Positions 7,469-58,183 of a stretch of 64,000 nt of DNA are shown one piece after another. The notes under the pieces are model-generated. The model was not told where the DNA came from. It searched no databases and saw only the letters and a list, made by a program, of their open reading frames with translations. The stretch comes from an uncultured Pseudomonadota bacterium. Its GTDB lineage: Bacteria > Babelota > Babeliae > Babelales > RVW-14. Position 1 is the first letter of the stretch; each line of letters begins with the position of its first letter. The stretch lies in the NCBI GenBank assembly GCA_964354855.1, contig CAYHBO010000001.1, positions 31,045 to 95,044 on the forward strand, written 5' to 3'. The position numbers and the translations under genes are program-made.

Positions 7469-9655
7469 TTACCCCAAAAAGGCCTGGTTGCCGCCTCCAT
7501 TTAGTACTAACTTATTTACCGTTAGCGTCAATTCAGTAGTTATCAATAAACGCTCATATGATACCTGAGGCTTAACGTCTTTGTTTTTTACTTCTTTAAA
7601 AAATGCCCTTAATAAATGTTCATGTCCTTTGTTAGGACTGCTTGTCTTAAGATTATCTGCAACAGCAATACCATAGCCCCGTAGTTCACGATAATCATCC
7701 ATCGTGATCGACTTGCCATCAAAAAAAATTTCCATATATTCTTTATTCATACTCGATGAGCCAGTCGAAGTAAACGTCAACGTACACACAGAACCATCAG
7801 ACATTTGCACCGTGGCAATAAAATTATCGGTACACGCAATACTCGCGATATTATGTTGTAATGGAATGGCCGAAACTGACACTGGCACTGCATCAGTTAA
7901 GAAACAAAAAAGCTCAAAGATATGACACGCTTCACCAATAATGCGCCCACCATGCTTTTCTGACTGCGTCCAATGCTCAGTAGTAAGATAGCCGACATTC
8001 ATCCGATAATTGATCATCAACGGCGTTGTTCTTTGAGTAATAAGTTTTTTGGTATGCACCATGAAGGGTGCCCATGATCGGTTAAAATCAACTGATAATA
8101 AACTTTGTGGATTATTAGCTAAGCAATTTTTTAATTGCTTAAGCTGCTCGAAATTTACGACGGCAGGTTTTTCGGCAAAAACTGCTTTACCATACTCAAG
8201 AAATTTTATGATTTGTTCGCTATGAAAATAGTGAGGCGTTGCTATGACTACGGCATGAATATCAGGATTATCTAACAACTGTTCATAAGTTGTACTTACG
8301 TTTTGGATTTTGTACTGGCGAGATGCATTGATTGCAACACTATTCACCGTATCAACCACTGTATGTAATGAAACATTTTTAATCGATGACAGTATCGGCA
8401 GTAACTTAACTTTACAAAAACCACCGGCGCCGATAACGGCAACATTGATAGTGGAATGTCCTTCGACAGGTTCAGGATGAGCGGGATAGTAAGTAATGTC
8501 GTTGCGCCCCGATGGAGCGAGTGAGTAGAGGGGAGCTATGGCATCCTTATACCTCAATACAATTCCTAAACTCTGCTGCGTCTGCAACTTTTCATAAGCA
8601 AGATCAGCCTGCTCAAAAGAAAATTCATGTTGAATCAGCGGCTCAATAGAAACTTTACCATCTTCAACTAATCGGGCAAAAAGTTCCATGTTACGATTCT
8701 CCGTCCAACGAACATAGGCATACGGATAATCATTTCCTTCACGCTCATAAGTCGCATCATAACGACCAGGTCCGTAAGAACATGAAATCAGCAGATCGAT
8801 TTCTTTGGTGTAAAACTGCTCACGATCAAAATCAAGTTTCACATCACCAACAATTACTACCTTACCTTTGCGGCGCGTAACCTGCATCGCGTCATTAATC
8901 AAATCACCCGTGCTACTTGCAGCGGTAATAATAACCGTATCAACCCCCTGATGACTTGTTGCGAACGCAATGCTCTTACGCCAATCTTCTTGTTTAGGAT
9001 TAAAAACATAATCGGCTCCAAACTTTTTAGCGAGCCCTATACGACTATCTTGTACATCAACACCAAAGACCCGCGCACCAGAAAGCTTACAAAGTTGAAC
9101 CGTAAGCTGACCTAAAAGCCCGAGCCCAACTACGCACACATTTTCACCAAGCTCAACATGCGCACGACGAACGGCTTGCATCGCAATCGCCCCAATGGTA
9201 GTAATGCTGGCATCTTTTAATGAAGCCTCATGATTAAGTTTAACCATAAGATTTTCCGGAACGACTACAACTTGCGCATGATTTGCGCTGCCGGATCCCC
9301 CACAAGCCACAAAATCTCCAACATGAAATCGCGTAACTCTAACCCCTACACCAATCACTACCCCTGAACAGGAATAACCAACTGGCAACACTTGAGTCAT
9401 AGAGCCTTTAATGAGTGACGTAGTCCCCTGCAGACCATTTTCTTTAAGCGAACCAAGAACTTTAGTCGTACTTTGACTTATGTTTGAAACAAACTTTTGA
9501 TAAATATTTTTACCAGAATTCGTAACGGTTGCATACTCGGTTCCACTGCTGATAAATGAATAATGAACTTCAACAAGAACTTCTTTTTCCCCAAGAAGGG
9601 GAATGTCTGTATCGAATAATTGCGCTTTCCCGGCCTGCAAAAAAACCTGTTTCAT
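7469..9655 (-). CDS. bi-domain oxidoreductase (MDR zinc-ADH-like N-terminus plus Gfo/Idh/MocA C-terminus)
   Basis: The N-terminal half has an MDR fold (GDFVACGG...VVGLGLLG). The C-terminal half has INVAVIGAGGF plus a Gfo/Idh/MocA C-terminal region. A PE2 repeat is inserted in frame at the domain junction (APSGRN...AHPEPVEGHS). Start could be TTG at 9664. Confidence 0.8.
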   Translation of the reverse strand: MKQVFLQAGKAQLFDTDIPLLGEKEVLVEVHYSFISSGTEYATVTNSGKNIYQKFVSNISQSTTKVLGSLKENGLQGTTSLIKGSMTQVLPVGYSCSGVVIGVGVRVTRFHVGDFVACGGSGSANHAQVVVVPENLMVKLNHEASLKDASITTIGAIAMQAVRRAHVELGENVCVVGLGLLGQLTVQLCKLSGARVFGVDVQDSRIGLAKKFGADYVFNPKQEDWRKSIAFATSHQGVDTVIITAASSTGDLINDAMQVTRRKGKVVIVGDVKLDFDREQFYTKEIDLLISCSYGPGRYDATYEREGNDYPYAYVRWTENRNMELFARLVEDGKVSIEPLIQHEFSFEQADLAYEKLQTQQSLGIVLRYKDAIAPLYSLAPSGRNDITYYPAHPEPVEGHSTINVAVIGAGGFCKVKLLPILSSIKNVSLHTVVDTVNSVAINASRQYKIQNVSTTYEQLLDNPDIHAVVIATPHYFHSEQIIKFLEYGKAVFAEKPAVVNFEQLKQLKNCLANNPQSLLSVDFNRSWAPFMVHTKKLITQRTTPLMINYRMNVGYLTTEHWTQSEKHGGRIIGEACHIFELFCFLTDAVPVSVSAIPLQHNIASIACTDNFIATVQMSDGSVCTLTFTSTGSSSMNKEYMEIFFDGKSITMDDYRELRGYGIAVADNLKTSSPNKGHEHLLRAFFKEVKNKDVKPQVSYERLLITTELTLTVNKLVLNGGGNQAFLG
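8458..8536 (-). repeat. PE2 composite element in frame in the bi-domain oxidoreductase
   Basis: The reverse complement reads GCTCCCCTCTACTCACTCGCTCCATCGGGGCGCAACG...CGCTCATCCTGAACCTGTCGAAGGAC. Confidence 0.8.
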
Positions 9656-13101: not shown

Positions 13102-13229
13102 TGTAAAAATATGCCCTTTCGTTATACCAATCTTTTAAGTATCTCTCAAGATCATTGAATTCTAACAGCCAAAAAACTATGTTGAGTATTATTTCAAACG
13201 ATACCTATGGTGTTATTTTAAGGAGTCAT

Positions 13230-15254
13230 ATGAAATCACTCAGCTTTTTTTGTAAATTTATTACCGGGGTTATCTTATCTTTAGGGATCATTATTTCTGA
13301 AACTATACACGCCCAAGAAATAAGAATTATTTCTTCTAATATTTTAGGTGAAGATGCTTATAAGAAATTTGTAAAGTGCGAAAAAATGGACTTTACAAAA
13401 CGCGCAAAAGCTTTTACAGCCTTCTTAAAAACCCAAGGGCCTGACGTTATGTGCTTACAAGAAGCAGATGCTTCATGGGCTACTGAACTACAAAAAATAA
13501 CTGACTACACCTTCCATTGTAACCAAAGCTCATATCTTGCCATCTTATTTAATCCTAAAAAATTAATTTTGATAGAAACAATTACTGACATTCAACATGA
13601 AAACCAAAGCAAAGGTATTCAAGCTTATCGATTTAAAACCATGACAGGACAAGAATTCGTTGTGATAAATATTCATGCATTGTTTAAGCCTGCAGCTCAA
13701 ACGTATGAATATGATCACCAAAAAACCTTAACCCCTCTAACAAACATTCCCGTCTTCGCCATGGGTGATTTAAATACAGGGTCAACTAATAATGCCACGT
13801 TCTTTCCAACACTATTCAAAGATTTTCAAGAACTTACAAAAGAAATTACCGTTACTTCACGAAATGTTAACACTAATCAGCCAGAAAAACTTGATTACAT
13901 CTATGGCCGCAACATTGATAAACTTGGCATAATAGACTCTGTATGTACCGTTCCCTCTTGCAGTAAAAATAATGTTAAATTACTTTTACCACACGTCGCC
14001 AGCAAAGCATTTAATACAGCTGACGAAAACAATTTCTACTCAGATCATGCCGCCGTTATAGTAACTATTACTCTCCCGGAAAAAGAACCTACCTATAGCC
14101 ATCCTACAATACTTGGAATTGTAGAATGGGACACTGATGGATTCTTAATTTTGAAAAAAGATAATGGAACGATAGTTAGGGTTGCACCTAATTCAAAAAA
14201 TCCTATACAGGTTTACATCATCGACAGATCCAAGCCGGGACAAGAAAATTTTGGGTTTAAGAAAGACGATAAAGTGGCTCGCGATTACTCCACAACAACG
14301 CTCACGCCTCCACCAGCAAACATTCCGGGCAAAGCCACCGTCAACGAACTTTCCAAACTCAAAGGATCTCTAGAACAAGTCGGCGAAACCATTAAGTTCT
14401 TACAAAAAAAATTAAAAAACTTACAAAAAACAATCCCACAAGCACCATCGCAACAAAAAGAACCTCAATTAAATACAACAGACAATGTTTACATCACGCT
14501 TGTACAAGGCGCCGATCTTCCATACCAACGCTTTGTAAATTGGCAAAAATCAGCAACAGTAAACCCTGCAAATTCAAGTTTAAATTCTGGAGGACTCGGA
14601 GAAGGTGCTTTTATTGAAGCAGCAACCGGCAATAGCGCTTGGGGAGATTTACTTAAAAAAAATAGAACATACTGGGAAGGTAAGGGTTGGACATCTGGCG
14701 ATAAGGCAAAAGGAAATGCCGTTATTTCTGATGCTGGCAACTTATGCACAGCGCAACTTATGAATTATATCATTCATGCCGTAGGGCCCTGTTTAGGTAA
14801 AACAGAGGGTAGAAAGCTCATATTAAAAGAAACGTACGAAAGTATTTTGGCGTTTGCCGACATGAAGCCATCAGATGATCTTGTTAAAATCGGACTTGGA
14901 GATAAAAATAATTACAAAGGCCTTGAGGCTGTTGCGATAAGCCTCGCTGGACTAGGCTCATGGGTGGGGGACCAAGGATTAGGAGTTGAAAGCAAACTTG
15001 TTATTGGCTATGTCCTCGATTACCTTAAAGCTTATCCAACATCACAACTCAAAGAGGTTCGATTTATTACCTACTCTAAAGAAGAATACGATATTTTTAA
15101 GACAGCACTTACATCTTTTGTCTCCCAAAATCGCCTCAAAATAGCAAACAACATTCCCTCTAATTTATTAACTACACTAAATCAAAGTTGCGTAAAAAAT
15201 CCAACAGGATATAAATCAAAAAATACCCCTTTAATTTTCACACTAATACGATAA
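13230..15254 (+). CDS. secreted endonuclease/exonuclease/phosphatase (EEP) domain - macrodomain fusion protein
   Basis: AAGGAG RBS precedes the ATG at 13230. EEP motifs: DVMCLQEAD, GDLN, YSDHAAVIV. Macro motifs at about 14487-15120: VNPANSSLNSGGLGEGAFIEAATG, YIIHAVGP, VRFITYSKEEYDIF. Confidence 0.8.
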   Translation: MKSLSFFCKFITGVILSLGIIISETIHAQEIRIISSNILGEDAYKKFVKCEKMDFTKRAKAFTAFLKTQGPDVMCLQEADASWATELQKITDYTFHCNQSSYLAILFNPKKLILIETITDIQHENQSKGIQAYRFKTMTGQEFVVINIHALFKPAAQTYEYDHQKTLTPLTNIPVFAMGDLNTGSTNNATFFPTLFKDFQELTKEITVTSRNVNTNQPEKLDYIYGRNIDKLGIIDSVCTVPSCSKNNVKLLLPHVASKAFNTADENNFYSDHAAVIVTITLPEKEPTYSHPTILGIVEWDTDGFLILKKDNGTIVRVAPNSKNPIQVYIIDRSKPGQENFGFKKDDKVARDYSTTTLTPPPANIPGKATVNELSKLKGSLEQVGETIKFLQKKLKNLQKTIPQAPSQQKEPQLNTTDNVYITLVQGADLPYQRFVNWQKSATVNPANSSLNSGGLGEGAFIEAATGNSAWGDLLKKNRTYWEGKGWTSGDKAKGNAVISDAGNLCTAQLMNYIIHAVGPCLGKTEGRKLILKETYESILAFADMKPSDDLVKIGLGDKNNYKGLEAVAISLAGLGSWVGDQGLGVESKLVIGYVLDYLKAYPTSQLKEVRFITYSKEEYDIFKTALTSFVSQNRLKIANNIPSNLLTTLNQSCVKNPTGYKSKNTPLIFTLIR

Positions 15255-15313: not shown

Positions 15314-16426
15314 ATGAAGCGTACATCGATATTATTACTCTTAGTGCCCAATAATTTTTGGCGCATTTTTACCGTATCATTTGATCTTATAAGACGTCAT
15401 CCTCGCGAAAGCGGGGATCCAGGGCTTACTTCTTTTTTAATTCTTTTTTTTGAATTACTTTTTATTAAAAAGACCTGGATCCACGCTTTCGCGAGGATGA
15501 CGTGCGGATTACTTATCTGCTTCTTCAATCAACAGATTTTTTGCAAAGAAAAAGAAACAGTACAAGAAATAATCGACACCCACAAAAAAACACTTTTTCA
15601 AACATATCCAACCAAAACAGAGCAACAGCAATTTACCAATGACCTTGTTGAGCAATCGTTCTCAGGCAAACAAGCAGATCTCTTTTTAAAAATGCATAGC
15701 GATAAAACTCAACACGAATCACTCCAATTTTTGTACACAACCATGTGGTCAGTGCTTGCTGAACATGGCTGGTGTACGTGGGATAGCTCCTGCCTCAAAG
15801 CACTCAAACAAGAACATGATTCTGGAAAAACGATTGTATACATCGGCGGGGGCTGTGATATTTACGAGCTCATCACCAATGGCATCTACAACATCATCGT
15901 CATAGACCCCATTTTACCAACCCAAAAAAATTATTACCCTGATGATTATCTTTATTTAATCCAAGGTTCAGGCCCTGATCATGGCCTGAATGATCAAATC
16001 ACCGGGCTTGCCGGCAACAAAAGGCTTACACTTAAGCGTAGCGGGTTTGAAAGTATGCCTGACTACATAAGCTTTAGCTTACCATCCGGGCAACAACGCT
16101 GTACTCAAGTATCAAAAACAACCTGGACCGTTCTTGATAAAAAACAACATCCGATTGGCACCATTATCTTTGATCGTAGATTTACCACACAAAAAGATTT
16201 TGAATTAGCACCAGACAGAGTGCTATTGTTTTCATGGAACGAGCTATTTTTTGTGATCAATGGTGAATGGGGGATCAAAACAAATCAATTTCAAGATGAC
16301 ATCACGCTTTTTATCAAGCAGCTCAGAAAGCCCATTACCAAAGAAATGATCGATAACATGCATCACGCCCATGAACTTAATCGTTCGAAGTTCAAATTTA
16401 TTGGCCTAGGAAGTCATGTTGTTTAA
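15314..16426 (+). CDS. paralog 1 of a triplicated secreted family (GG-x-D-[IV]-Y / IDP-x-LP-[TS]-Q domain)
   Basis: The roughly 230-aa C-terminal domain aligns with the next two ORFs (TIVYIGGGCDIYELITNGIYNIIVIDPILPTQKNYY, FDRRFTTQKDF, IKQLRKP). A full PE1 element lies in frame in the N-terminus. Confidence 0.6.
   Translation: MKRTSILLLLVPNNFWRIFTVSFDLIRRHPRESGDPGLTSFLILFFELLFIKKTWIHAFARMTCGLLICFFNQQIFCKEKETVQEIIDTHKKTLFQTYPTKTEQQQFTNDLVEQSFSGKQADLFLKMHSDKTQHESLQFLYTTMWSVLAEHGWCTWDSSCLKALKQEHDSGKTIVYIGGGCDIYELITNGIYNIIVIDPILPTQKNYYPDDYLYLIQGSGPDHGLNDQITGLAGNKRLTLKRSGFESMPDYISFSLPSGQQRCTQVSKTTWTVLDKKQHPIGTIIFDRRFTTQKDFELAPDRVLLFSWNELFFVINGEWGIKTNQFQDDITLFIKQLRKPITKEMIDNMHHAHELNRSKFKFIGLGSHVV
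15394..15503 (+). repeat. PE1 palindromic element, full copy (inside CDS)
   Basis: ACGTCATCCTCGCGAAAGCGGGGATCCAG ... CTGGATCCACGCTTTCGCGAGGATGACGT with an AT-rich spacer. Confidence 0.9.
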
Positions 16427-16457
16427 AGAAAAATTAATTTTATTCAGGAATACTTAC

Positions 16458-17840
16458 ATGCTTAAAAAGTTAAATTACTTATTGCAGACATTGCAACGCC
16501 TTACGTCATCCCAGCCTTCGCTGGGATCCAGGTCTACTCTACTACTGCTTCTTCTGACTACTTTTCTTACCTCTCATGCCACCCCCGTTATAAAAAACGG
16601 ACCCAATGTATTTGAAAAATGGGTAACGAAACAAACGATCCTAACTGATCGATCTCCAACCGAAATGGCCGCACTCCTCAACGATCACTACTTAACTCAA
16701 TTTCGTGCTTACTACGAAAGTAATTTTGCACTACTAAAACCATTAACTGGATTTTTAAATAGGTTAACCGCAGAGCAAATTAACCAGCATGGATACCGAT
16801 TTGAATCAATATTACCAGCGCCTATGACATCAACTTTAACCTCTTTATACGATCAACTTGAACACAATCAACAAGCATTTGTTAATACCTTAAAGCACCT
16901 CCAATTTTCATCTCCTATGATTAATCACATTGAAGAATCGTGTAAATATGACTTCACCGTTGAAAAATATAAAATGCTGTCACGGTTGCTTTTCAAACAA
17001 GAAAACCGATTTAAAGAAGACGAGTTTCTTCTTGGGATGGCCAATAGAATTTTTGAATACTGTTTTCAAGAAGTCTCTTTTCCCCACTACCAAGCATTAC
17101 TTAATAATCAAAGTGATTATCCCCTCGTACGATTTTTACACAGCACTCTATGGTACAACTTAGTTGGCAGCAACTGGCTCAACTGGCATAAAAATAGCTT
17201 AGAATTAATAGAACAGTCAGCCGATGCAGGCAATAGAATTATGTACCCAGCAGGCGGAACCGATGTATACATGCTCCTACAAAACGGCGTATACAATATC
17301 ACCATTGTTGATCCATTTTTACCAACACAAAAAGATTACTACACAGAAGGGTGGGATTGGTTAGTAAGAAGCAATACTCAAGATGGTGGCATCAATGATG
17401 AAATCAACTTTAATCCACCATACCGGCACCTTACATTAAAGCGAACCGCTTTTACCGAAGGCGATTCATTTTATGCTAAACTTTCTACCGGCGATGCCGT
17501 AATGATCAAAAAAAGCACCACCACCTGGACTGTTCTTGATGGTAGCACCAATGCAACGCTTGGTTCCATCATTATTGATCGACGTTTCACAAACCAACAC
17601 GATTTCACCGTTAAGAATAATCCCATTGTTATGTCATACGATGAACTTGTATGTGCCATATCTCCAGAGATGCTGAGTGGCTGGGGCATCGACCCTGACC
17701 TAATACATGATGATCAAGTCATCATCGTTAAGCAATTACGTAAACCGGTTCCCAAAAAAATACTGCAAAACTTGCGCATTGCAATTGCAATGAATGCCGT
17801 AAATATGAAGTTTATTAGTTTTGCATCAGATCCAACATAA
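16458..17840 (+). CDS. paralog 2 of the triplicated secreted family
   Basis: RIMYPAGGTDVYMLLQNGVYNITIVDPFLPTQKDYY, IDRRFTNQHDF, VKQLRKP. A solo PE1 arm lies in the leader (RLTSSQPSLGSRS). The start could be 16416. Confidence 0.6.
   Translation: MLKKLNYLLQTLQRLTSSQPSLGSRSTLLLLLLTTFLTSHATPVIKNGPNVFEKWVTKQTILTDRSPTEMAALLNDHYLTQFRAYYESNFALLKPLTGFLNRLTAEQINQHGYRFESILPAPMTSTLTSLYDQLEHNQQAFVNTLKHLQFSSPMINHIEESCKYDFTVEKYKMLSRLLFKQENRFKEDEFLLGMANRIFEYCFQEVSFPHYQALLNNQSDYPLVRFLHSTLWYNLVGSNWLNWHKNSLELIEQSADAGNRIMYPAGGTDVYMLLQNGVYNITIVDPFLPTQKDYYTEGWDWLVRSNTQDGGINDEINFNPPYRHLTLKRTAFTEGDSFYAKLSTGDAVMIKKSTTTWTVLDGSTNATLGSIIIDRRFTNQHDFTVKNNPIVMSYDELVCAISPEMLSGWGIDPDLIHDDQVIIVKQLRKPVPKKILQNLRIAIAMNAVNMKFISFASDPT
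16503..16532 (+). repeat. PE1 solo arm (variant hairpin CCCAGCcttcGCTGGG), inside CDS
   Basis: ACGTCATCCCAGCCTTCGCTGGGATCCAGG. Confidence 0.75.
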
Positions 17841-17850
17841 GGAGCGCGCC

Positions 17851-19365
17851 ATGATATTTTTTTTAACTATTTTTTTGGCATTATTATTTTTTATGCTGTT
17901 ACTTTTTACCTCTAAGTCATCCTCGCGCATGCGGGGATCCAGTCTTTTTCTTAAAAATAAGCAGCTTTTAACAAAGAAGGCATGTATCCCCGCATGCGCG
18001 AGGATGACGTCACAAGAACCTCATTGGCTTCTCTCAACCACAAAGAAAATAACATTAAACGTTCTTTTAATTCTACTTATCATCCCCTCCATCAACGCCA
18101 TCGAAGCAAAACGCGCCTCCGATGTCTTTAAAAAATGGCTTACCTGGCAAGAGTGCTTTACCCCAGTAAACCTTGCTGACGAACAAGAAAAACTTGCTCA
18201 ACAATTTTCAAAGAACTTTAAAACTGTTTATGAACAATACCTTCCGCTCCTTCGCACTTACCACACGCCATTTTTGCAAAAACTTACTGATAGCCAAGTA
18301 AGCGAAGCTGGACATCAGATCACTGATTTAAGACATGAAAATATTCGATCAACATTAACCAAACTCTACGTGGCGGCACAAAACGATATGCCAACATTTA
18401 TCAACATGCTCAATAATTTATCATTCAACGAACATTCTCTAAGTATTCCTCAAGCATTTACACAAGATGTCATTGATAACAGCTTACGAACCAATGCCGC
18501 TCTATGTTCTTGTATCTTTGGTCAAGACAACCAACACAGCTCAGTTAACACGCTAAAAGACACTGCTATCCTTTTTGAAGTTGCCAACAAGTTTGCTAAT
18601 TTTTGTTTTGAGCCTAAAACATTCCCCCTATTTCAAGAAATGTTACTCCAAAAAAAATACCGCGCTACCGCACAGTTCCTCTTTTCAACCATGCATCAAC
18701 GCTTTTCAGGTTCAGGCTGGCACAATTGGAGTACACAATGTTTAAGCGATCTCAAAACAGCATCAGAAGAAGGAAAAACAGTTGTTTATGTCGCAGGAGG
18801 GAGTGATATTTATCAACTCATCACTCATGGCATTTACAACATTAAAGTGATTGATCCTCAGTTGCCATCACAACCACAATACTATGCTGATGAGTGGGCA
18901 TGGATTATAAAAGGCGACATTGGAGATCAAATTGTTTTTGACACACAGAACATCATCATGACGAGAACAAGTTATCAAGAAGAGAATAAGTCATTCATAG
19001 CTCGATTAGAAGATGGACAAGAAGCAAGTATTAACCCAAGTAAAACAGTCTGGTTTATTGCTAATATCGATGGGAAAAAGCTTGGATCATATACATTAGA
19101 ACGTCGTTTTGTGAGACAAGAAGATTTTAAAGAAGCGCCCGATCAGGCGCTTCTTATGTCATTTAATGAACTCTTTTTTATCGCATTGCCTGATGTATTG
19201 CAAGGCTGGCATATCGAACCGAGTAAATTTACTGATGATCTTAACATTTTCATCAAACAGCTTCACGAGCCAGTCACTAAGGCAGAAGTGTGTAATATGC
19301 GCAATGCAAGCTTATTGAATGCAACAGATTTTAAGTTTATCCCACTAGGCTGCAGAATTAATTAA
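17851..19365 (+). CDS. paralog 3 of the triplicated secreted family
   Basis: AAGGAG RBS. TVVYVAGGSDIYQLITHGIYNIKVIDPQLPSQPQYY, LERRFVRQEDF, IKQLHEP. A PE1 element lies in frame between two hydrophobic segments. Confidence 0.6.
   Translation: MIFFLTIFLALLFFMLLLFTSKSSSRMRGSSLFLKNKQLLTKKACIPACARMTSQEPHWLLSTTKKITLNVLLILLIIPSINAIEAKRASDVFKKWLTWQECFTPVNLADEQEKLAQQFSKNFKTVYEQYLPLLRTYHTPFLQKLTDSQVSEAGHQITDLRHENIRSTLTKLYVAAQNDMPTFINMLNNLSFNEHSLSIPQAFTQDVIDNSLRTNAALCSCIFGQDNQHSSVNTLKDTAILFEVANKFANFCFEPKTFPLFQEMLLQKKYRATAQFLFSTMHQRFSGSGWHNWSTQCLSDLKTASEEGKTVVYVAGGSDIYQLITHGIYNIKVIDPQLPSQPQYYADEWAWIIKGDIGDQIVFDTQNIIMTRTSYQEENKSFIARLEDGQEASINPSKTVWFIANIDGKKLGSYTLERRFVRQEDFKEAPDQALLMSFNELFFIALPDVLQGWHIEPSKFTDDLNIFIKQLHEPVTKAEVCNMRNASLLNATDFKFIPLGCRIN
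17914..18010 (+). repeat. PE1 element, diverged full copy (inside CDS)
   Basis: AAGTCATCCTCGCGCATGCGGGGATCCAG ... ATCCCCGCATGCGCGAGGATGACGT. Confidence 0.85.
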
Positions 19366-19432: not shown

Positions 19433-20290
19433 TTACGCTGCAAGCAACAAGCCCATTTGATAATATATATTTAATCCAACAGAATCTAGCCTTTGTGACG
19501 CTATCACTCTAGCAGTTACATTAACAGGAGTTTCGCCATTACAAACAATATTTCGATTCGCCCCTGCAATAATTAATGTATGCATAATTTTTAACGCATC
19601 TTCATTTGCATGAACATCAACATTGGCAACAATATGCAACGCTGTTTCACCAAAACAATTTGTGTGATTAATAAAAGCTAGAATATCAGACCGTGAACAA
19701 AGCTGACGCACTTTTACCAAACTACCAACCAAGCAAGCATCTAAGAGTATATCCCCGAAAGAATTATCTTGAGAATCAAAAACGCCTTGTATTCTCAAAC
19801 ACTCACACACATCCTGGTCATTACAAGTTGTTACCGCAGAAACAAGAGAGACTCCTTGCTTACTGACAACTTGTAAGGCAGTTTTCCCCTCATGATTTTT
19901 AACATACACAGATGCCCGACCTTCTTTTATCAAAATAAAAGCTTTAGTCCATTGCCCACCCATTACAGCAAAATGTAACGCTGTATTGCCATCTTCATCT
20001 TTGGCATTAACCATAGCGCTTTCACTATGAACTATTGCTCGCAACTGTTCAACGTCACCAGACATTACCGCAACCATCAAAGGCGTCGTCCCTGTTCTAT
20101 GAGTTACCGCGAAATTTACCCCCGCATCAACTTGACGATAGAGATCTTTAGTTTGTTGATAATAAACAACCAAAACAGCATCAGTTTTTTGTCCAAATGC
20201 CCCTAAAGTATATGAATTAACATCCGGATTCATAGCATACATATTACTAATAAAACAAAGGCCAGTCGCAATTAACATTAATTTTTTCAT
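19433..20290 (-). CDS. secreted ankyrin-repeat protein
   Basis: Leader ...NMYAMNP. ANK motifs: GTTPLMVAVMSGDVEQL, DGNTALHFAVMGG, GKTALQV, GETALHIVA. Confidence 0.85.
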   Translation of the reverse strand: MKKLMLIATGLCFISNMYAMNPDVNSYTLGAFGQKTDAVLVVYYQQTKDLYRQVDAGVNFAVTHRTGTTPLMVAVMSGDVEQLRAIVHSESAMVNAKDEDGNTALHFAVMGGQWTKAFILIKEGRASVYVKNHEGKTALQVVSKQGVSLVSAVTTCNDQDVCECLRIQGVFDSQDNSFGDILLDACLVGSLVKVRQLCSRSDILAFINHTNCFGETALHIVANVDVHANEDALKIMHTLIIAGANRNIVCNGETPVNVTARVIASQRLDSVGLNIYYQMGLLLAA

Positions 20291-23990: not shown

Positions 23991-25448
23991 TCAACTTTTC
24001 GTCACCGGGTCAGGGATTAATAGAATATTCAACGGATCTTGCGGCCAGGTTCTGCCTGATGGTACCCATAAAAATCGCTTACCGGTACGCTCCTGAATCG
24101 ATCTTAATGGATAATCATAAACCTTCATAGCACAAGCATCATACGTTTCAGCAAGGATAATCTCAACACATCCCTCACTATTCAACTTAGAGCCTGATAC
24201 GGTAGACACGGTAAACACCGGTCCGTAATGTTGCATGTAAAATTGTGGGCTTTCACCAGAGACCACTTCTTTCCAGTCCAAAGGCCTGTTTTTAGGATCT
24301 TCAAATGGCTTTCGTAGCAAGTCTGCATCGATATTTATTTCTTTATCTCTGAACAACTTTAACACCGCAATAGAATCTTGATGGCCGCGAATAAGGGCAT
24401 CTACCTGTTGATTATTAAGTATACATTCAACGGCAAACAGATCCGCACTATGAATATCATTCCCACGATTAGATTTCGAAAATAATTTTCTACGCAAGCT
24501 TTCTTCGATTGCTTCATTATCACAATTTTGTTTAACCAATATGGCCCTTTCTGGATCATGATGAATGATATCCGTCCATAAGTAATGTGAAAAATAAACC
24601 CCTACAATCGGATTATAAAGATCTTTCAAAAAAATTGGTTTAAAGGAAGCCTGGCTACTCAATAATAGCTCCTTAGGATCAAATTTAGGCTCAGGAGCAC
24701 CGTGACAAAATTGAAGAATTGCACCCCCACAGCGCACATAGTGTGTCAATGCAAAACATGAGTAAAGTGTATCTAGTTGCTCAATAAGACCTTCAGGTTC
24801 ATTAAACAAATACTTATCCATAATTTCTCGGATGAGGCCTTTAGCTCCATAATATCTATTAATCTCTACCCATTCATGATTCCCGCGCAACAAAATAACA
24901 CGATCAAAATTAAGCATTTTAAGACAAAGCAAGAGAGCTAGGCATTCAACACTATATTTTGTTCTATCAACATAATCGCCAATAAAAATAAGAGAACATC
25001 CAGGGTTGAGCGTTAAATCTTCATTGAGCACTCCCTCAATAACCCAACGCCGCAACTGCCGCAATAACGTAAAATAAGATCCATGAATATCTCCAACGAC
25101 AAAAAGATGATCTTCTGGCGTTAAATGCCATGATGAAGCATGGCCAACATGGCCATCTTTATTGCTGATGCCAAAATCAGCAAGTTGCCTTTCTGTCTCT
25201 ATGATAAACATATCAATCAATGCAGAAAAATCTTTCTGATAAATAAGAGCATCCAGATGCTTATCTAACAATGGAATTTCTGGATAATTTTGTTCACTCC
25301 ACCATACCGTCTCTTCAAGTTCTTGTAGGGTTTTGAAATCATAGAAATCTTTAAGTTGCTTAAAATCATCAGGACCTGCAAGAAGGGCCGGATGCAGAGA
25401 AAGAAAGATAGCGAGAAGAAGTTGTGTAATTAGAAATTTAAATTTCAT
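23991..25448 (-). CDS. secreted PPP-family (calcineurin-like) Ser/Thr phosphatase, paralog A
   Basis: Signal peptide. GDIHG, GDYVDRT and LLRGNHE are the PPP signature GDxHG/GDxVDR/GNHE. Confidence 0.8.
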   Translation of the reverse strand: MKFKFLITQLLLAIFLSLHPALLAGPDDFKQLKDFYDFKTLQELEETVWWSEQNYPEIPLLDKHLDALIYQKDFSALIDMFIIETERQLADFGISNKDGHVGHASSWHLTPEDHLFVVGDIHGSYFTLLRQLRRWVIEGVLNEDLTLNPGCSLIFIGDYVDRTKYSVECLALLLCLKMLNFDRVILLRGNHEWVEINRYYGAKGLIREIMDKYLFNEPEGLIEQLDTLYSCFALTHYVRCGGAILQFCHGAPEPKFDPKELLLSSQASFKPIFLKDLYNPIVGVYFSHYLWTDIIHHDPERAILVKQNCDNEAIEESLRRKLFSKSNRGNDIHSADLFAVECILNNQQVDALIRGHQDSIAVLKLFRDKEINIDADLLRKPFEDPKNRPLDWKEVVSGESPQFYMQHYGPVFTVSTVSGSKLNSEGCVEIILAETYDACAMKVYDYPLRSIQERTGKRFLWVPSGRTWPQDPLNILLIPDPVTKS

Positions 25449-25501: not shown

Positions 25502-25634
25502 ACGTCATCCTCGCGAACGCGGGGATCCAGGCCTTACTTACTTTTACAGACCTTCTAAAAACTTGTTAGAAAAGAAGTATAAAAATTTTAAAGTAGAAAA
25601 AAGTTCTGGATCCCCGCATTCGCGAGGATGACGT
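25502..25634 (+). repeat. PE1 element, full copy (intergenic between the two phosphatase genes)
   Basis: ACGTCATCCTCGCGAACGCGGGGATCCAGG ... CTGGATCCCCGCATTCGCGAGGATGACGT. Confidence 0.9.
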
Positions 25635-25715: not shown

Positions 25716-27338
25716 TTATTGAGGCCAATCTTCAGGATTTTGTTGAGCAGAAGGCCACCGACCTGTAACCGTTCTGACTTCAGGTTCTACATCAGCAGCA
25801 GTTTCTCTTCGCTGCCGCATAAACCTATCTCCACCATATTCTTCATCTAAATCCCCAGTATGAGACAAGTCTAAAAGGCTAAAGGGAATATCTTCATCTT
25901 CACCACCTCGTCGCTGTAACCGCGCCAAATTACGTCTTGGCGGCAATGGCGTTAACGATCTATCCTGAGGTGAAAGATCTCTTACAGGCTCAATCACTAA
26001 TGGATCTTGAGGCCAAACATTGCCAGATGGTCGCCACCTAAAACAGTTATTCACGCGCTGATTATAAGGGAGCAAGGGATAATCATACACTTTCATCACA
26101 CATTTATCATAAGTTTTTGCAAGAATAATTTCTACACACCCCTCACTATCAATTTTTGATCCAGACGCCGCAGATAAGGTAAAAACAGGGCCATAGTTTT
26201 TCATATAAAATTCTGGATTACGACCCTCTACAACATCTACCCAGTTAAGTGGAGCATTTCTTGGATCAGTAAATGGATTAACCATTGTATCCGTATCAAT
26301 AATCACTTCTTTCTCTCTAAATAATTTTAATACTGCTATCATATCCTGATGCCCACGAATAAGAGCATCAACAAAGGTTGACTTAAGAATACGATCTATA
26401 GCAAATAAATCAGCACTAACCAAATCATGCCCTCGAGCAGAAGATGAAAATAAGTTTGCATTCAAGCTCGATTCAATAGCCAAATAATCACCTTGCTTTA
26501 GAAAAGCCTCTCTTGCTGGATCATGATGAATAATGTCGGTCCACAAGTAGTGTGAAAGATTAACATTTTTCGATTCTAATTCTTCTTTTTCAAGTAAAGA
26601 AAAAAACGAATCCTGACCCAATATTAATTCAATTGGAGGATTTTTTGGCTCAGGAGCCCCATGACAAAACTGCAACAGCGTACTGCCACAACCAACATAG
26701 AGCGTTAATGTAAAACATAAATACAATTGATCTAGCTGATCAATAACTTCTTGAGCCTCCCTAGAGTACTTATTTCTAATCTCTTGTGTAAAGCCATAAT
26801 CTGCATAAGAATTATTCATTGCAACCGATTCATGATTACCTCGTAATAACACAACCCGATCTTCATTAATTAATGCTAATAAAAGCATAATCGTTAAACA
26901 TTCTAAGCCGTACACTGTTCGATCAACATAATCACCAATGAAAACAAGTGAGTACCCCGAGAGAAGTCTTAAATCTTCCGTCATCACTCCTTCAAGAACC
27001 CAACGATCAAGTTGCCGCAACAATGAAAATAATGATCCATGAATATCTCCAACCACAAAAATTCGATGTTCAGGGCCTAGCACCCATCCCTGAGCATACC
27101 CAACCCCACCTGAAGCATTTGCGCCCTTAAGCTTACGCTGTATAACGCTTATAAACTCATCCATCAAGGCACAAAAGTCTTTTTTAGAAATAGAAATTCT
27201 TGTATTAGAGAAATGCGGAATTTCTGGATAGGTAGAAAAAAGCTGCCTGAGCCCAGAAACTGTTTTAAATTCGTCGGGAATGGCAAGTAAAGATGGTATG
27301 ACCAGTAAAAAAAAAAGGTTTAAAATTTTCAACCTCAT
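25716..27338 (-). CDS. secreted PPP-family Ser/Thr phosphatase, paralog B, with extended charged C-terminal tail
   Basis: GDIHG, GDYVDRT, LLRGNHE. Collinear with paralog A, plus about 85 extra C-terminal residues rich in R/E/D/P. Start placed at MRLKILNLFF. Confidence 0.8.
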   Translation of the reverse strand: MRLKILNLFFLLVIPSLLAIPDEFKTVSGLRQLFSTYPEIPHFSNTRISISKKDFCALMDEFISVIQRKLKGANASGGVGYAQGWVLGPEHRIFVVGDIHGSLFSLLRQLDRWVLEGVMTEDLRLLSGYSLVFIGDYVDRTVYGLECLTIMLLLALINEDRVVLLRGNHESVAMNNSYADYGFTQEIRNKYSREAQEVIDQLDQLYLCFTLTLYVGCGSTLLQFCHGAPEPKNPPIELILGQDSFFSLLEKEELESKNVNLSHYLWTDIIHHDPAREAFLKQGDYLAIESSLNANLFSSSARGHDLVSADLFAIDRILKSTFVDALIRGHQDMIAVLKLFREKEVIIDTDTMVNPFTDPRNAPLNWVDVVEGRNPEFYMKNYGPVFTLSAASGSKIDSEGCVEIILAKTYDKCVMKVYDYPLLPYNQRVNNCFRWRPSGNVWPQDPLVIEPVRDLSPQDRSLTPLPPRRNLARLQRRGGEDEDIPFSLLDLSHTGDLDEEYGGDRFMRQRRETAADVEPEVRTVTGRWPSAQQNPEDWPQ

Positions 27339-27535
27339 ATCTACCCCCCGTAGAAGAAACATCACATTTAATTAAAAATTACCCACATAAAAAGCATGCT
27401 TGTTTTAGTTTAAAAAAGTAAACGGTTACTCAATTACTCACAAAAACTCTCTATCTTAAACTGTTAACGCTTTCTTGCCATTTTGATTCATATGTGTAAG
27501 ATATTTCTTAGGTTTTTTTCCAAAGGAGTTCTATT

Positions 27536-30133: not shown

Positions 30134-30163
30134 ACGTCATCCCCGCATTCGCAAGGATGACGT
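30134..30163. repeat. PE1 collapsed/minimal palindrome
   Basis: ACGTCATCCCCGCATTCGCAAGGATGACGT. Confidence 0.7.
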
Positions 30164-30299: not shown

Positions 30300-32021
30300 T
30301 TACACCAATGTCGGTGTAATAAAAATCAACAGTTGTTTATCCTCAAGCTTCTTGCGTTTACCCTTAAAAAGCCATCCAATTACCGGAATCTCCTGAATCC
30401 ATGGCACCCCGGTATGAATAACATCTTTCGAGTTTTCGATAAGCCCACTGATCATGGTCGTCTGTCCGTCACACAACACTACTCGATTACTAGAGCGAGA
30501 CGTCATAATCGTGTAAGGAAATGATCCAAGCTGTGAAGTATTAGACGAACTTGAAATAGTTGCGGTACTGGCTTTAACAAAAGAATTTTGCACAAAAATA
30601 TCTAAGAAGATCGATTTCTGATCAGGCGCCACCGTCGGCTTAACTTTTATTTTCATCCCGATATCTTTATACCCAATCGTTGTAACATTGGTTGGGCTCC
30701 CCGCAACCGTCTCTTGCAACACGGTTGCCTGTGGCATTTCTTGTCCAACCAAAATCTCTGCACACTCCTGGCTTTTTACGAGCAGTGATGGCTTTAGAAT
30801 GGTTTCTAACTCATGCTTTGTTTCCGCAGCATTAAGCATAACATTTAACCGATTGGTACTCAGATTTTTATTTCCGAAAGAAAACGGAATTTGTACAGTT
30901 TTGATGCTAGAAATCGAAGTTGGAATAAAATTTAATGCCCACCCCAAAAGATTCTCAAAGCCGGACGGTTCACTTCCATTTTTTGTACCAACACCAATCC
31001 CTGCAAACTGAAAACCATTCTGAGAGATACTTGCACTACGATCATACATACCGGACCATTCAAAACCAATAGCCTCTTCAAAATCTTTTGATACCATAAC
31101 AATGCGTGCATCAATTCTCACTTGTGGCACATGCATATCAATTTCCTGTAGCGCTTTTTTGAAATCAATTACAAAGTTTTTTCTGCCACGACAAAAAATT
31201 TTACGTGATTCATCATCAAACACAATGTAATGACTTTTAATAAGAATATGGCCAACAATACCATTCCAAAGTTGCTCAATGCGCTTTTTAAATTCAGCAT
31301 TCCAATTTACATAGTGAATGGTAATGTAGTCGGCAACAGTATCCTGCTCGATCGATTTTTCAGCCTTCACTTTTAACTCTTCTATAGCTACATTTTGCTT
31401 AAGAATACGCCATACACCACGGTCATTAATCAACGCAAGTCGTGGAAGATTATTACTCAATAAAATTGAAAGCACCGCAGCTAAAGACGCATCATTGAAC
31501 GAAAAATTTCTGATATACCCATCAACATCGGCATCCATAACAAAATTAATATCGGTAAGCTTACCCACAAGTTCTATTGCCTTACGTAAACTTACTTCGT
31601 GTAATTTTATGGTTACTTTTTTTTCGGTTAACAAAATATCATCATACTGCTTTTCCAATAAGAGCCTGATCTCAGGAACCAAGAGATCTACAACTGCTTT
31701 GGTGGCAGCCTGCTGTTGCGTATTTCCGCGAGGACACTTCGTACAATTTTTATGTTTATTTTTTTTACGCTTTTTCTGGGCAGGCTTTTTGTCATAACAC
31801 TCTTCGTTTTCTTCATTTACCACACGCTCAACAATCGAATTTATGTTTTGAAGTTGCTTCTTTTCTTTCCGATCATACTCCTGTTTTGCAAGTAACGAAT
31901 TGGTTGGCGGAATGGTTATACCATAATGTTCATGCGGCCAGAAGTCTTCTTTCTGTTCTTGTTCATCAGCCCCAAGAACCGATACACCCATAAGAACGGC
32001 TAACAAAAACATTCTTTTCAT
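30300..32021 (-). CDS. pilQ: secretin (PilQ/GspD family)
   Basis: Signal peptide, an STN-like N-domain (VSLRKAIELVGKLTDINFVMD) and a secretin C-domain ending GVPWIQEIPVIGWLFKG......LLIFITPTLV. Confidence 0.85.
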   Translation of the reverse strand: MKRMFLLAVLMGVSVLGADEQEQKEDFWPHEHYGITIPPTNSLLAKQEYDRKEKKQLQNINSIVERVVNEENEECYDKKPAQKKRKKNKHKNCTKCPRGNTQQQAATKAVVDLLVPEIRLLLEKQYDDILLTEKKVTIKLHEVSLRKAIELVGKLTDINFVMDADVDGYIRNFSFNDASLAAVLSILLSNNLPRLALINDRGVWRILKQNVAIEELKVKAEKSIEQDTVADYITIHYVNWNAEFKKRIEQLWNGIVGHILIKSHYIVFDDESRKIFCRGRKNFVIDFKKALQEIDMHVPQVRIDARIVMVSKDFEEAIGFEWSGMYDRSASISQNGFQFAGIGVGTKNGSEPSGFENLLGWALNFIPTSISSIKTVQIPFSFGNKNLSTNRLNVMLNAAETKHELETILKPSLLVKSQECAEILVGQEMPQATVLQETVAGSPTNVTTIGYKDIGMKIKVKPTVAPDQKSIFLDIFVQNSFVKASTATISSSSNTSQLGSFPYTIMTSRSSNRVVLCDGQTTMISGLIENSKDVIHTGVPWIQEIPVIGWLFKGKRKKLEDKQLLIFITPTLV

Positions 32022-37352: not shown

Positions 37353-37455
37353 ACGTCATCCTCGCGAATGCGGGGATCCAGACCTTCGAATAAAATAATC
37401 CAAAGACCAACAAGAAAGAAGTAAGACCTGGATCCCCGCATTCGCGAGGATGACG
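37353..37455 (-). repeat. PE1 element, full copy, spacer inverted (intergenic between P6 and pilB)
   Basis: ACGTCATCCTCGCGAATGCGGGGATCCAG ... CTGGATCCCCGCATTCGCGAGGATGACG. Confidence 0.9.
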
Positions 37456-37490
37456 CCTCAAAGAACTAAAATAACCTATTAATAGGTAAC

Positions 37491-39197
37491 TTATATTTCA
37501 TTAGCCTCTTCAAAATGCGCCACACCTAGAACCTCTTCAATTGTGGTAATTCCCAAAGCAACACAACGAATACCATCATTAATCAATAGCGTCATCCCTT
37601 GTTCTAGCGCTTTATTTTTAATGGTTACCGCATCGGCTTTTTGAATAATCAACGTAGCAATCTGATCGGTAATTTCCATAATTTCGAACAATGGCAAGCG
37701 TCCTCGGTAGCCTTTATTAAGACACTCATCACACCCAACCGGCTCATAAAAAGTTATTCCTTTTGCGGTTACTGGTGTTAAACCAATGCGCAACAGCGTA
37801 TCTGAGGTTGGAATATATGCTCGCTTACATTTTTTACACAATCTTCGTACAAGCCGCTGAGAGATAACACAGATCAACGAAGAGGCAATTAAAAATGGCT
37901 CAATGCCCATATCAATCAATCGCGTCACCGTTGCGGGAGCACTGTTTGTATGAATTGTACTAAGCACCAAGTGACCGGTTAATGCTGCTTGCGTTGCGAT
38001 CTGCGCCGTTTCGGTATCTCGAATTTCCCCGATCAGTACAATGTCAGGATCTTGTCGCAAAATTTCACGCAATGCAGTCGCAAACGTTAGCCCAATTTTA
38101 GCGTTAACGTTCACCTGGTTAATCCCATTAATGGTATATTCAACCGGATCTTCGACGGTAACTAAGTTAACATCAGGCTCATTAAGCCGAGAAAGTATCG
38201 AATAAAGCGTTGTGGTTTTCCCGGAACCAGTTGGTCCACTGACCATAATAATCCCGTTAGGGCGCTGAATAATGTTCACCACTTTATCATAATCTGTTTT
38301 ACTAAGATTAAGATTCTCAAGCTCTTGCGTGCCGGTTGATTTGTACAACAAGCGCATTACCACTTTTTCACCAAAGTTTGTCGGCAGCACCGATACCCGA
38401 AGATCGAGTGGCTTGTCGGCAACCTTAATCATGATCCGTCCACTTTGAGGAAGCCGCTTTTCAGCAATATTCATGTTCGACATAATTTTTATACGAGAAA
38501 CAATGGCGCCTTGAAATCGTTTGGGGGGGATCATCCGTTGATACAAGTTGCCATCAATACGATAGCGCACCCGTAACTCTTTTTCGTATGCTTCAATGTG
38601 AATATCAGAAGCCCCTTCTTTAGCCGCTTGAAACAAAAGATGGTTTACCAATTTAACAATGGGAGCTTCATTGGCCATCTCCATGATATCTTTTTCTTCA
38701 ATATCCCCCATGATGCCAAATTCAGCCTCTTCTTCTTCTTTAAGTTCTTCCATCATCTCCCCACCGGTCTCAAGCGGGTAATATTTATTGATGGCATCAT
38801 TAATGCTAATTTCAGTTGCAACCGCATAACGAACATCGCCCGACATCAATAATGCAAGGTCATCAAGTGGTTGTAGATCCCGCGGGTTTGCGGTAACAAT
38901 AGTTTTTTGGCCTTCAAACATGATTGGGATAACGCAATTTTGACGTAGAAATTTCAACGGGGTCTTTTTTAGTAGGCTTACATCGGCCATTTGCTCAGTC
39001 ACCATTTCAATGAACGGAACTTCAACCTGGGCTGCGAGCGCACGTGCAAGATCAATTTTAGAAACGAGCCCTTGCTCAAGTAGTAATTGCCCAAGAAGCT
39101 TGCCTGTTTTCTTTTGCTCTTTTAAACATTCCTGTAACTGTTCTTCGCTGATAATATTGAGGTCTATAAGAAGATCGCCGATACGTTTTCGCAACAT
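37491..39197 (-). CDS. pilB: type II secretion / type IV pilus assembly ATPase (GspE/PilB family)
   Basis: MshEN-like N-domain, Walker A GPTGSGKTTTLYS, Asp/His boxes and the tetracysteine CKKC...CDEC. Confidence 0.9.
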   Translation of the reverse strand: MLRKRIGDLLIDLNIISEEQLQECLKEQKKTGKLLGQLLLEQGLVSKIDLARALAAQVEVPFIEMVTEQMADVSLLKKTPLKFLRQNCVIPIMFEGQKTIVTANPRDLQPLDDLALLMSGDVRYAVATEISINDAINKYYPLETGGEMMEELKEEEEAEFGIMGDIEEKDIMEMANEAPIVKLVNHLLFQAAKEGASDIHIEAYEKELRVRYRIDGNLYQRMIPPKRFQGAIVSRIKIMSNMNIAEKRLPQSGRIMIKVADKPLDLRVSVLPTNFGEKVVMRLLYKSTGTQELENLNLSKTDYDKVVNIIQRPNGIIMVSGPTGSGKTTTLYSILSRLNEPDVNLVTVEDPVEYTINGINQVNVNAKIGLTFATALREILRQDPDIVLIGEIRDTETAQIATQAALTGHLVLSTIHTNSAPATVTRLIDMGIEPFLIASSLICVISQRLVRRLCKKCKRAYIPTSDTLLRIGLTPVTAKGITFYEPVGCDECLNKGYRGRLPLFEIMEITDQIATLIIQKADAVTIKNKALEQGMTLLINDGIRCVALGITTIEEVLGVAHFEEANEI

Positions 39198-48564: not shown

Positions 48565-48846
48565 TCATTTAACTTAAGATCTTTTTCTTGGAGATATAAA
48601 AAAAGAATTATCAACAACCCACGTAGTCTATCGGAACTTTTCCAAAAAGTGAAGGCATACCGAGTACGCTTTAAGACATTTCTCATTTTTAATCTTTTCT
48701 TATTGAAAAAAAACTTTTTCTCTCCTTCTTCTTAAATATAAATATTTATATTTAGTAGTAGTAGTAGGCTCGGCGAAAATTGTTGATAACTCAAAAAAAA
48801 ATCAAAATTATATCGTTCTATAACGCGTTATCAACCGGTTTTGAAT

Positions 48847-48901
48847 TGTTGATAACTTGTGGATAACTTGTTGATAACTTGTGGATAACTTGTTGATAAC
48901 T
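48847..48901 (-). repeat. five tandem 11-bp units TTGT[T/G]GATAAC (DnaA-box-like, complementary orientation)
   Basis: Read directly. Units at 48847, 48858, 48869, 48880 and 48891, alternating the TGTTGATAA and TGTGGATAA forms. Confidence 0.9.
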
Positions 48902-48997
48902 TTTTAAGTCTTTCATTTAATCGTGCTATAAGCCTTATTCAATGGATAATTCTCTATAATAACTACCCAATAGACCTTTTCATGACAAGAAAAAAAG

Positions 48998-49042
48998 TTA
49001 TCAACAAGTTATCCACAAGTTATCAACATAGTTATCAACAAT
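48998..49042 (+). repeat. four 11-bp units GTTATC[A/C]ACAA, inverted relative to 48847-48901
   Basis: Read directly. Units at 48998, 49009 (perfect TTATCCACA), 49020 and 49032. Confidence 0.9.
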
Positions 49043-55584: not shown

Positions 55585-55688
55585 ACGTCATCCTCGCGAA
55601 AGCGGGGATCCAGTCCTTACTTCTTTCTTTTTTCTTTTGGATAATTTTTATAAGAAGATCTGGATCCCCGCTTTCGCGAGGATGACGT
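55585..55688 (+). repeat. PE1 element, full copy (intergenic between cysK and dapF)
   Basis: ACGTCATCCTCGCGAAAGCGGGGATCCAG ... CTGGATCCCCGCTTTCGCGAGGATGACGT. Confidence 0.9.
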
Positions 55689-58164: not shown

Positions 58165-58183
58165 ACATAAGGGCTCAAATGGT

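Follow-up and report, generated by a model that had tools for sequence, protein, structure and literature searches.

In a 64,000-nucleotide stretch of the genome of an uncultured Dependentiae bacterium (GenBank assembly GCA_964354855.1, contig CAYHBO010000001.1, positions 31,045 to 95,044; hereafter the 64-kb window), three head-to-tail genes at 15314-19365 each carry sequence of a palindromic element, PE1, within the first ~65 codons. We consider it rather probable that these copies represent three separate and fairly recent insertions of hairpin repeats, of the class formed by the Neisseria NTS and the degenerate Ssn-related motif (SRM), into the 5' ends, where the leader is encoded, of genes in an ancient tandem array of an orphan protein family.

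PE1 copies in the tandem array

The three open reading frames (ORFs) of the array were taken from the ORF list of the window and are co-directional. Their parts are given below in window coordinates, the PE1 elements without strand.

15314-16426, plus strand: paralog 1, 370 amino acids (aa) as in the NCBI gene call, short par1-type, with the C-terminal domain (C-domain) and a tail of the N-terminal domain (N-domain)
15394-15503: full PE1 copy of paralog 1, 110 nt, with two 30-nt inverted arms of NTS/SRM type and a T-rich interior
15686-16423, plus strand: C-domain of paralog 1, from alignments
16458-17840, plus strand: paralog 2, par2-type, 460 or 474 aa with ATG 16458 or ATG 16416 as the start, respectively
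16503-16535: solo PE1-type arm of paralog 2, 33 nt, with the variant stem CCCAGC/GCTGGG and 7 mismatches in 30 positions
16533-16580, plus strand: hydrophobic core of the putative paralog 2 signal peptide, with an AxA-like site (STLLLLLLTTFLTSHA), from hydropathy; aligns with the leaders of orthologs
17118-17837, plus strand: C-domain of paralog 2, from alignment; modelled alone with a predicted local distance difference test score (pLDDT) of 88.5
17851-19365, plus strand: paralog 3, par3-type, 504 aa from ATG 17851
17914-18010: full PE1 variant of paralog 3, 97 nt, with 4 mismatches in each arm
18043-18099, plus strand: basic residues, hydrophobic core and cleavage-type site of paralog 3 (KKITLNVLLILLIIPSINA), from hydropathy and leader alignment
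18628-19362, plus strand: C-domain of paralog 3, from alignments

The PE1 arm ACGTCATCCTCGCGAAAGCGGGGATCCAGG was matched 12 times in the window at no more than three mismatches, and not at all in shuffled sequences. In paralog 1 the two arms have 0 and 1 mismatches, the frame RHPRESGDP...WIHAFARMT runs through the element without a stop, and the RNA hairpin is predicted at -63.5 kcal/mol (z = -10.9). The solo arm of paralog 2 encodes LTSSQPSLGSR in the n-region of the signal peptide and keeps a perfect 8-bp stem through compensatory changes (-15.1 kcal/mol, z = -3.2). In paralog 3 both arms bear the derived GCGCATGCG and are 96% complementary to each other, and the hairpin reaches -59.8 kcal/mol (z = -9.7); full PE1 copies in general fold at -60 to -74 kcal/mol, with z from -10 to -13. 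With their hairpins intact, the three copies represent separate variants and not stages of decay. A preliminary description of this DNA had correctly recognized a full element, a solo arm and a second full element in paralogs 1, 2 and 3, but its view of them as decay states does not agree with hairpins that stay intact. It had also placed every element between the start codon and the hydrophobic leader. This is the case in paralogs 2 and 3, in which the element separates a candidate start codon from the hydrophobic core of the signal peptide, but not in paralog 1, in which it is flanked by two hydrophobic segments.

Other roles and origins were considered for these sequences. The hydrophobic core of paralog 2 was tried as a recycled PE1 interior and rejected, as its local alignment surpassed neither that of shuffles (p = 0.63) nor those of the leaders of other orthologs. 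A role of PE1 as an intrinsic terminator found no support, with no T-run after the element and an unremarkable terminator scan, and Rfam identified no family anywhere in the window.

Age of the array and of the insertions

In tblastn searches of the fetched loci, a tandem pair of par2-type and par3-type genes was found in about 20 Dependentiae loci, and a third, short upstream copy in three of them (L003, L007 and L028). The closest relative is L028, from GCA_964459565.1, whose par2-type protein is 62% identical to its counterpart in the window. A neighbour-joining tree of the C-domain paired each gene of the array with its own counterpart in L028, with bootstrap values of 99% for paralog 1 and L028 5296-6408, 100% for paralog 2 and L028 6442-7761, and 98.5% for paralog 3 and L028 7780-9255. 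As read from these pairs, the triplication is shown to be older than the split from L028.

The first two L028 genes (par1' and par2') encode plain signal peptides without PE1. The third (par3') has an unrelated 75-nt palindrome at 7828-7902 (GTATCCTTCGGCAGGCTCAGGACGAGC...GCTCGTCCTGAGCTTGTCGAAGGATAC), exactly 25 codons long, between its ATG and the signal-peptide core; this type of palindrome is absent from the window. With PE1 missing from two of the L028 genes and a different palindrome in the third, the comparison of the two loci therefore shows the PE1 insertions to be later than both the triplication and the split from L028, and independent of one another. In the alignment, no insertion was found in any other homolog, including P0002 and P0003.

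The preliminary description had offered, as one of two possibilities, that a single PE1 insertion preceded the triplication and then decayed in frame in each copy. The similar position of all three copies near the 5' end is what such a history would leave behind. The comparison with the orthologous L028 locus, however, revealed no common old PE1 in an array that is older than the insertions, and the paralogs have diverged to 30-35% identity, yet the PE1 of paralog 1 is just 0-1 mismatch away from the genomic consensus. Moreover, neutral decay would not preserve the perfect hairpins of the variants. We therefore regard this history as refuted.

Repeat class of PE1

PE1 is an inverted doublet of ~100-130 nt, with terminal inverted repeats of ~30 nt and a conserved, asymmetric and T-rich interior. 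Each arm consists of an 8-bp stem with a 4-nt loop and a conserved, oriented CGTCAT flank, and the arm CGTCATCCTCGCGAAAGCGGGGATCCAG is identical to the Neisseria NTS consensus CGTCATTCCCGCGMAVGCGGGAATCYRG at 25 of 28 positions. The degenerate SRM motif, HGTCWYN(0-2)YYVSBRHN(0-5)WNVSBRGN(0-2)RNCYNB (PMC11893778), is matched 10 times in the window, where chance would give 0.14 matches. It fits both arms of paralog 1 and the left arm of paralog 3; the strict expression is not fitted by the solo arm of paralog 2 or the right arm of paralog 3, both of which keep the termini and the hairpin. Judged by these arms, PE1 is a member of the NTS/SRM class of hairpin repeats.

That class was defined in Neisseria, where the NTS contains dRS3, and the GIY-YIG nuclease SsnA cuts single-stranded DNA at NTS/SRM hairpins and modulates transformation; in Neisseria the NTS repeats are also concentrated near genes for surface proteins and have an effect on transformation (PMC11893778). 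The same report does not mention Dependentiae or insertions into coding sequence. PE1 is not lineage-specific: the exact arm was found on at least 120 metagenome contigs, and the first 80 arm-bearing metagenome loci analysed span 33-69% GC, which implies that the arm has spread across very different bacteria.

Small (~95-aa) GIY-YIG genes are present on four of 120 arm-bearing contigs (L083, L101, L132 and L143) and are flanked by arms in L083 and L101. At L083 600-1500 and L101 6784-7680, as well as in L132 and L143, these genes lie inside tandem arrays of compact doublets, in each of which an 11-nt loop joins a PE1-type arm to an NTS-type arm (CTGGATTCCCGCCTGCGCGGGAATGACG). Another Dependentiae metagenome-assembled genome (MAG) has, just upstream of a family gene (L002 5598-5850), a short tblastn match to the C-terminus of the GIY-YIG protein on the minus strand (E = 7e-4) and an ORF that reads ...GWIPDQARDD, which together look like a decayed Ssn gene and an SRM-like repeat. 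An Ssn-type enzyme may mobilize or target the repeats in the organism of the window. No transposase adjoins the arms examined, and neither a RAYT nor an insertion sequence (IS) transposase was found.

Placement at gene boundaries

In the metagenome loci, 66% of the elements lie outside ORFs, compared to 23% of random positions, and 8% are internal to ORFs, compared to 38%. The window copies at 25.5, 37.4 and 55.6 kb occupy spacers of co-directional genes, in which 54-70 nt separate them from the start codon downstream. In this genome, elements of this kind accumulate where co-directional genes meet. In the family array, as in the arrays of its relatives, the genes abut, with spacers of ~10-30 nt, and an element at a gene boundary therefore falls just inside the next gene.

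We propose the following course of events. The array is an old tandem set of par1-, par2- and par3-type genes, whose proteins carry a putative Sec-type signal peptide, a helical N-domain (shortened in par1) and the C-domain. As the elements gather at co-directional boundaries and the spacers of the array are so short, three insertions may have landed just downstream of start codons. The leader upstream of the hydrophobic core would tolerate extra residues, and these would be removed at cleavage, so that the insertions could persist. The ORFs stay open because the PE1 arms are free of stops in five of six frames. In part, this accommodates the other possibility raised in the preliminary description, namely that the position is a repeated target. 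Boundary preference and leader tolerance would account for the recurrence, but evidence for a specific target sequence was not found.

A stronger form of the repeated target is a true hotspot, specific in sequence or structure, which lies in the 5' ends of the family and draws palindromes repeatedly. Three PE1 variants in three paralogs, another palindrome at the same place in L028 par3', and the SRM-like repeat with a GIY-YIG remnant just upstream of a family gene in L002 all point in this direction, and the same can be said of the 5'-end placement, which is not generally enriched for this repeat class (see below). Yet the 5' DNA of the paralogs has no detectable common target motif, and a perfect-arm scan of about 25 other Dependentiae loci gave no GC-rich inverted repeat in the vicinity of the family genes. 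A pair of phosphoesterase genes in the same window, with PE1 at its boundary, suggests instead a general boundary effect. We find such a hotspot improbable. The perfect-arm scan of L001-L027 detected no palindromes at family 5' ends, although it also missed the imperfect element of L028 par3', so that diverged ones could escape it; its single match within a few hundred nucleotides was L005 4252-4299, just after the array. Insertion at the 5' ends of the family appears to be restricted to certain lineages.

Possible translation through the elements

No in-frame ATG, GTG or TTG exists between the arm and the hydrophobic core in paralog 2, and L028 par3' has no canonical start codon downstream of its element. 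If the signal peptide is made in these two genes, the element must therefore be read through, and we infer from the reading frame that the arm of paralog 2 must be translated. Translation of the elements in paralogs 1 and 3 appears likely on several grounds. The upstream ATGs at 15314 and 17851 are preceded by Shine-Dalgarno (SD)-like motifs (GGAGTAGGAA and the strong TAAGGAGCGCGCC, respectively), which are found before 35% of the ORF starts in the window and before 7% of random positions. Such motifs do not precede the ATGs of the arms, which are buried in long stems. In paralog 1, coding conservation reaches to about 15630, and no start codon occurs between 15504 and 15691.

A number of observations weigh against the favoured explanation, and most of those on translation would equally suit an alternative in which the elements are untranslated parts of 5' leaders or spacers, the true starts of paralogs 1 and 3 are the right-arm ATGs at 15497 and 18004, and the ORFs are merely open through stop-free elements. 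The full copies are 110 and 97 nt long, neither a multiple of three, and an insertion that was simply in frame would call for additional, unresolved bases or for a frame repaired afterwards. Translation could be hindered by hairpins that reach about -60 kcal/mol inside the first 60 codons. Gene callers differ on the start of paralog 3, which NCBI sets at 17929, inside the arm, while the mechanical ORF opens at TTG 17821. Initiation at the arm is possible, with the right-arm ATG in frame in paralogs 1 and 3, as in an LmbE-like gene described below, and followed by hydrophobic segments. This alternative also draws on the T-rich codons upstream of the paralog 3 element, which resemble a spacer, and on the intergenic position of other window copies, 54-70 nt ahead of start codons. 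It is countered by paralog 2 and L028 par3', where translation through the element is forced, by the arm ATGs, which lack a spaced SD-like motif and sit in stems of ~30 bp where the upstream ATGs have good motifs, and by the conserved coding sequence of paralog 1, with no start codon over the interval given above. We regard the untranslated alternative as rather unlikely.

The remaining difficulties concern placement and mobility. The 5'-end placement is not enriched in the metagenome loci (14%, compared to 26% at random), and three 5'-end copies in one array are therefore unusual and may not be fully explained by boundary preference. A motif scan identified no GIY-YIG or ssn gene in the 64-kb window, and the GIY-YIG genes are confined to four of the 120 arm-bearing contigs. 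No consistent target-site duplication was seen at the flanks, where TA/TA occurs at two of five copies.

A further alternative is that the PE1 peptides have been co-opted, either as an extra membrane hairpin or extended leader, or that NTS-gene-NTS cassettes tune recombination at secreted-protein genes. The PE1 interior in the frame of paralog 1 encodes a hydrophobic 14-mer, and several intergenic copies keep one stop-free frame per orientation. Genes for ComEC, a PilB-like ATPase and a secretin are found in the same window, and the clustering of NTS repeats at surface-protein genes in Neisseria and their effect on transformation (PMC11893778) would fit such a role. On the other hand, the peptide is not conserved in relatives, in which the elements are absent, no ssn gene was seen in the window, no element follows paralog 3, and the open frames could reflect the shared ancestry of the copies. 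Co-option of either kind seems to us highly improbable, and we retain three independent insertions as the preferred explanation.

As a separate matter, the right-arm ATG was tried as a start codon donated by the element. It is in frame in three of three cases, which has a probability of ~0.125 when two open arm frames are taken and is not significant, and this idea was rejected. Start codons near such repeats are unreliable for annotators, as the public gene calls give three start choices.

Protein family and predicted structure

The three genes, described before as head-to-tail copies with a common C-terminal domain, do share one of ~240 aa (30-38% identity among the three in alignments). Three of the four motif blocks proposed for it match all three paralogs exactly; the long block needs [IV] instead of V at its first position. 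The additional helical N-domain proposed for paralogs 2 and 3 was recovered in the alignment and in the AlphaFold2 model, which is all-helical over this part (helices at 48-237). In paralog 1 the N-domain is reduced to about its last 60 aa.

The family could not be named, in agreement with its earlier description as an unassigned secreted family in triplicate, and we treat it as an orphan family with signal peptides. No family of Pfam, NCBIfam or PADLOC matched any of the three paralogs, Pfam matched none of 34 aligned members, and sequence-profile searches of the PDB gave no match. A word-indexed search returned 32 relatives, every one unnamed. When 1.84 billion cluster representatives were searched exhaustively with a profile, 202 of them matched, 192 at E<=1e-10, and the family is therefore small and sharply bounded. 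The genome matches were mostly MAGs of Dependentiae/TM6/Babeliales, along with a few Leptospirales and one Verrucomicrobia genome.

The model of paralog 2 was of high confidence (pLDDT 92.3, predicted template modelling score 0.87; for the C-domain alone see the feature list). Foldseek searches against the PDB gave no match at E<0.001, as the full protein reached 0.027 at best and the C-domain 0.046, with TM-scores <= 0.24, and the viral structure library BFVD gave no match either. A Rossmann-like nucleotide or S-adenosylmethionine (SAM) binding fold, suggested in the preliminary description on account of its GG-x-D block, thus found no support in Pfam, NCBIfam, PADLOC, PDB profiles or Foldseek. 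To some extent the C-domain does resemble a class I SAM methyltransferase, in that a beta strand leads through the GG-x-D loop and a short helix to a second strand that closes with Asp-Pro, at a spacing like that of motif I and post-I. The rest of the domain, however, consists of antiparallel strands of 9-17 residues and not of alternating beta-alpha units, and the methyltransferases among the Foldseek results for the C-domain are noise (TylM1, E = 0.22, TM 0.17). In the predicted structure, the C-domain is alpha/beta and dominated by long antiparallel strands after the GG-x-D start.

The N-termini of nearly all homologs open with a short basic stretch and a hydrophobic core, after which a small-x-small site precedes the conserved motif VFxKW by ~10 residues, and a hydrophobic 11-mer lies in the first 40 aa of 117 of the 159 members that start with M. 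These features point to a putative signal peptide and to export of the family proteins by Sec. Six loci, all of one basal clade, have convergent genes for an AmiC-type amidase and MurB on the downstream side; at other loci the neighbours are amino-acid transporters. The paralogs are perhaps an exported periplasmic or envelope set, in which the par2/par3 pair works together. We offer this with low confidence, and it counts against it that any inference of function leans on the weak AmiC/MurB synteny of a single basal clade.

Other copies and neighbouring genes

Four further PE1 copies of the window, again without strand, are as follows.

25502-25634: reference copy, 54 nt ahead of a start codon, in the spacer of two tandem secreted Metallophos paralogs
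37353-37456: reference copy, in a spacer of co-directional genes, with 66 nt to the start codon downstream
55585-55688: reference copy, both arms perfect, in the spacer ahead of a dapF-like gene and 70 nt from it
58058-58212: copy with an extra arm, in an LmbE/BshB1-like deacetylase gene, at the 5' end of its mechanical ORF (57234-58256, minus strand)

The first copy separates two tandem, signal-peptide-bearing Metallophos/PPP-type phosphoesterase genes whose products are 54% identical (23991-25448 and 25716-27365, both minus strand), and is the untranslated counterpart of the case in the family array. In the LmbE/BshB1-like ORF, whose start overlaps the stop codon of the upstream gene for a PEP-utilising enzyme, one and a half PE1 copies occupy the first ~65 codons (...VRHPREGRDP...VRHPRECGDP...WIPAFARMT) and are followed by a hydrophobic segment. 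The copies at 37353-37456, 55585-55688 and 58058-58164, of ~104-107 nt and called intergenic, hold the frame RHPRESGDP...WIPAFARMT free of stops in both orientations, despite an AT-rich interior, and this could be due to shared ancestry or to selection for compatibility with ORFs. A mini element of 30 nt at 30134-30163 (ACGTCATCCCCGCATTCGCAAGGATGACGT), consisting of both PE1 termini around one hairpin, lies between the genes for PRPP synthetase and the secretin.

The window also contains a ComEC-like gene (Competence, PF03772; 20704-21909, plus strand), the secretin gene (30300-32021, minus strand) and a gene for a PilB-type T2SSE ATPase (37491-39197, minus strand). They are relevant here because SsnA and NTS modulate natural transformation in Neisseria (PMC11893778). 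The family array itself is flanked by genes for signal-peptide-bearing, effector-like proteins at 13155-15254 (plus strand) and 19433-20290 (minus strand), an endonuclease/exonuclease/phosphatase-macro domain fusion and an ankyrin-repeat protein. At 48846-49028, a perfect 37-nt inverted repeat of tandem DnaA-box-like 11-mers (TGTGGATAACT / TGTTGATAACT) coincides with the sign change of the GC skew (48-50 kb); this is probably the chromosomal replication origin.

Relation to known repeats and significance

PE1 is closest to the NTS/SRM repeats (Neisseria dRS3 and NIME; PMC11893778), with which it shares the oriented CGTCAT flank, the semi-palindromic hairpin core and a dispersed distribution with clustering around particular genes; the same exact arm elsewhere flanks small GIY-YIG genes. 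In architecture it resembles a dRS3-flanked NIME unit or a REPIN doublet. It differs from the Neisseria repeats in its Dependentiae host, in forming discrete doublets of ~104-110 nt with a T-rich interior, in the lack of ssn in the window, and in copies that lie inside the 5' ends of ORFs and are apparently translated, at least in part. Repeats of the REP/BIME/REPIN type with RAYT, and miniature inverted-repeat transposable elements such as Correia, are likewise short, non-autonomous inverted hairpin doublets that are strongly intergenic between co-directional genes. PE1 differs from these in that no RAYT or IS transposase and no consistent target-site duplication were found, and its arm is of the Ssn-linked and not of the GTAG-type REP class.

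The placement in coding sequence is reminiscent of the Rickettsia palindromic elements (RPEs; Ogata et al. 2000, as cited in PMC10969869). These are palindromes of ~100-150 bp in the genes of an obligate host-associated bacterium, whose frame is kept open and read as an extra peptide. PE1 is likened to them by its architecture and open frame alone, not by sequence. The insertions described here differ in their place, which is the leader (ahead of the signal peptide or inside it) and not the mature protein, and most of the PE1 copies in the window are intergenic. Our literature search found no report of palindromic elements in Dependentiae or of RPEs in signal peptides. Three aspects are new: that the repeats are of NTS/SRM identity, that they lie in leaders of signal peptides, and that their host belongs to this phylum.

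A bolder idea is that a Dependentiae parasite with competence and type IV pilus genes uses NTS/SRM doublets, placed around each gene of a secreted array without Foldseek matches in the PDB, both as translated leader modules that change membrane insertion or export and as cassettes that tune recombination at these genes. We think this distinctly improbable; if it were true, the Neisseria Ssn/NTS system would reach a distant phylum and gain a coding role. The favoured explanation links this class of repeats to Dependentiae, in an RPE-like coding placement that has not been described for it, and offers a natural experiment on the amount of added sequence that a Sec leader can take. The protein family, present as a tandem pair across Dependentiae and with a confident model that has no relative in the PDB, is a reasonable target for studies of structure and function at the envelope or host interface of these little-known parasites.

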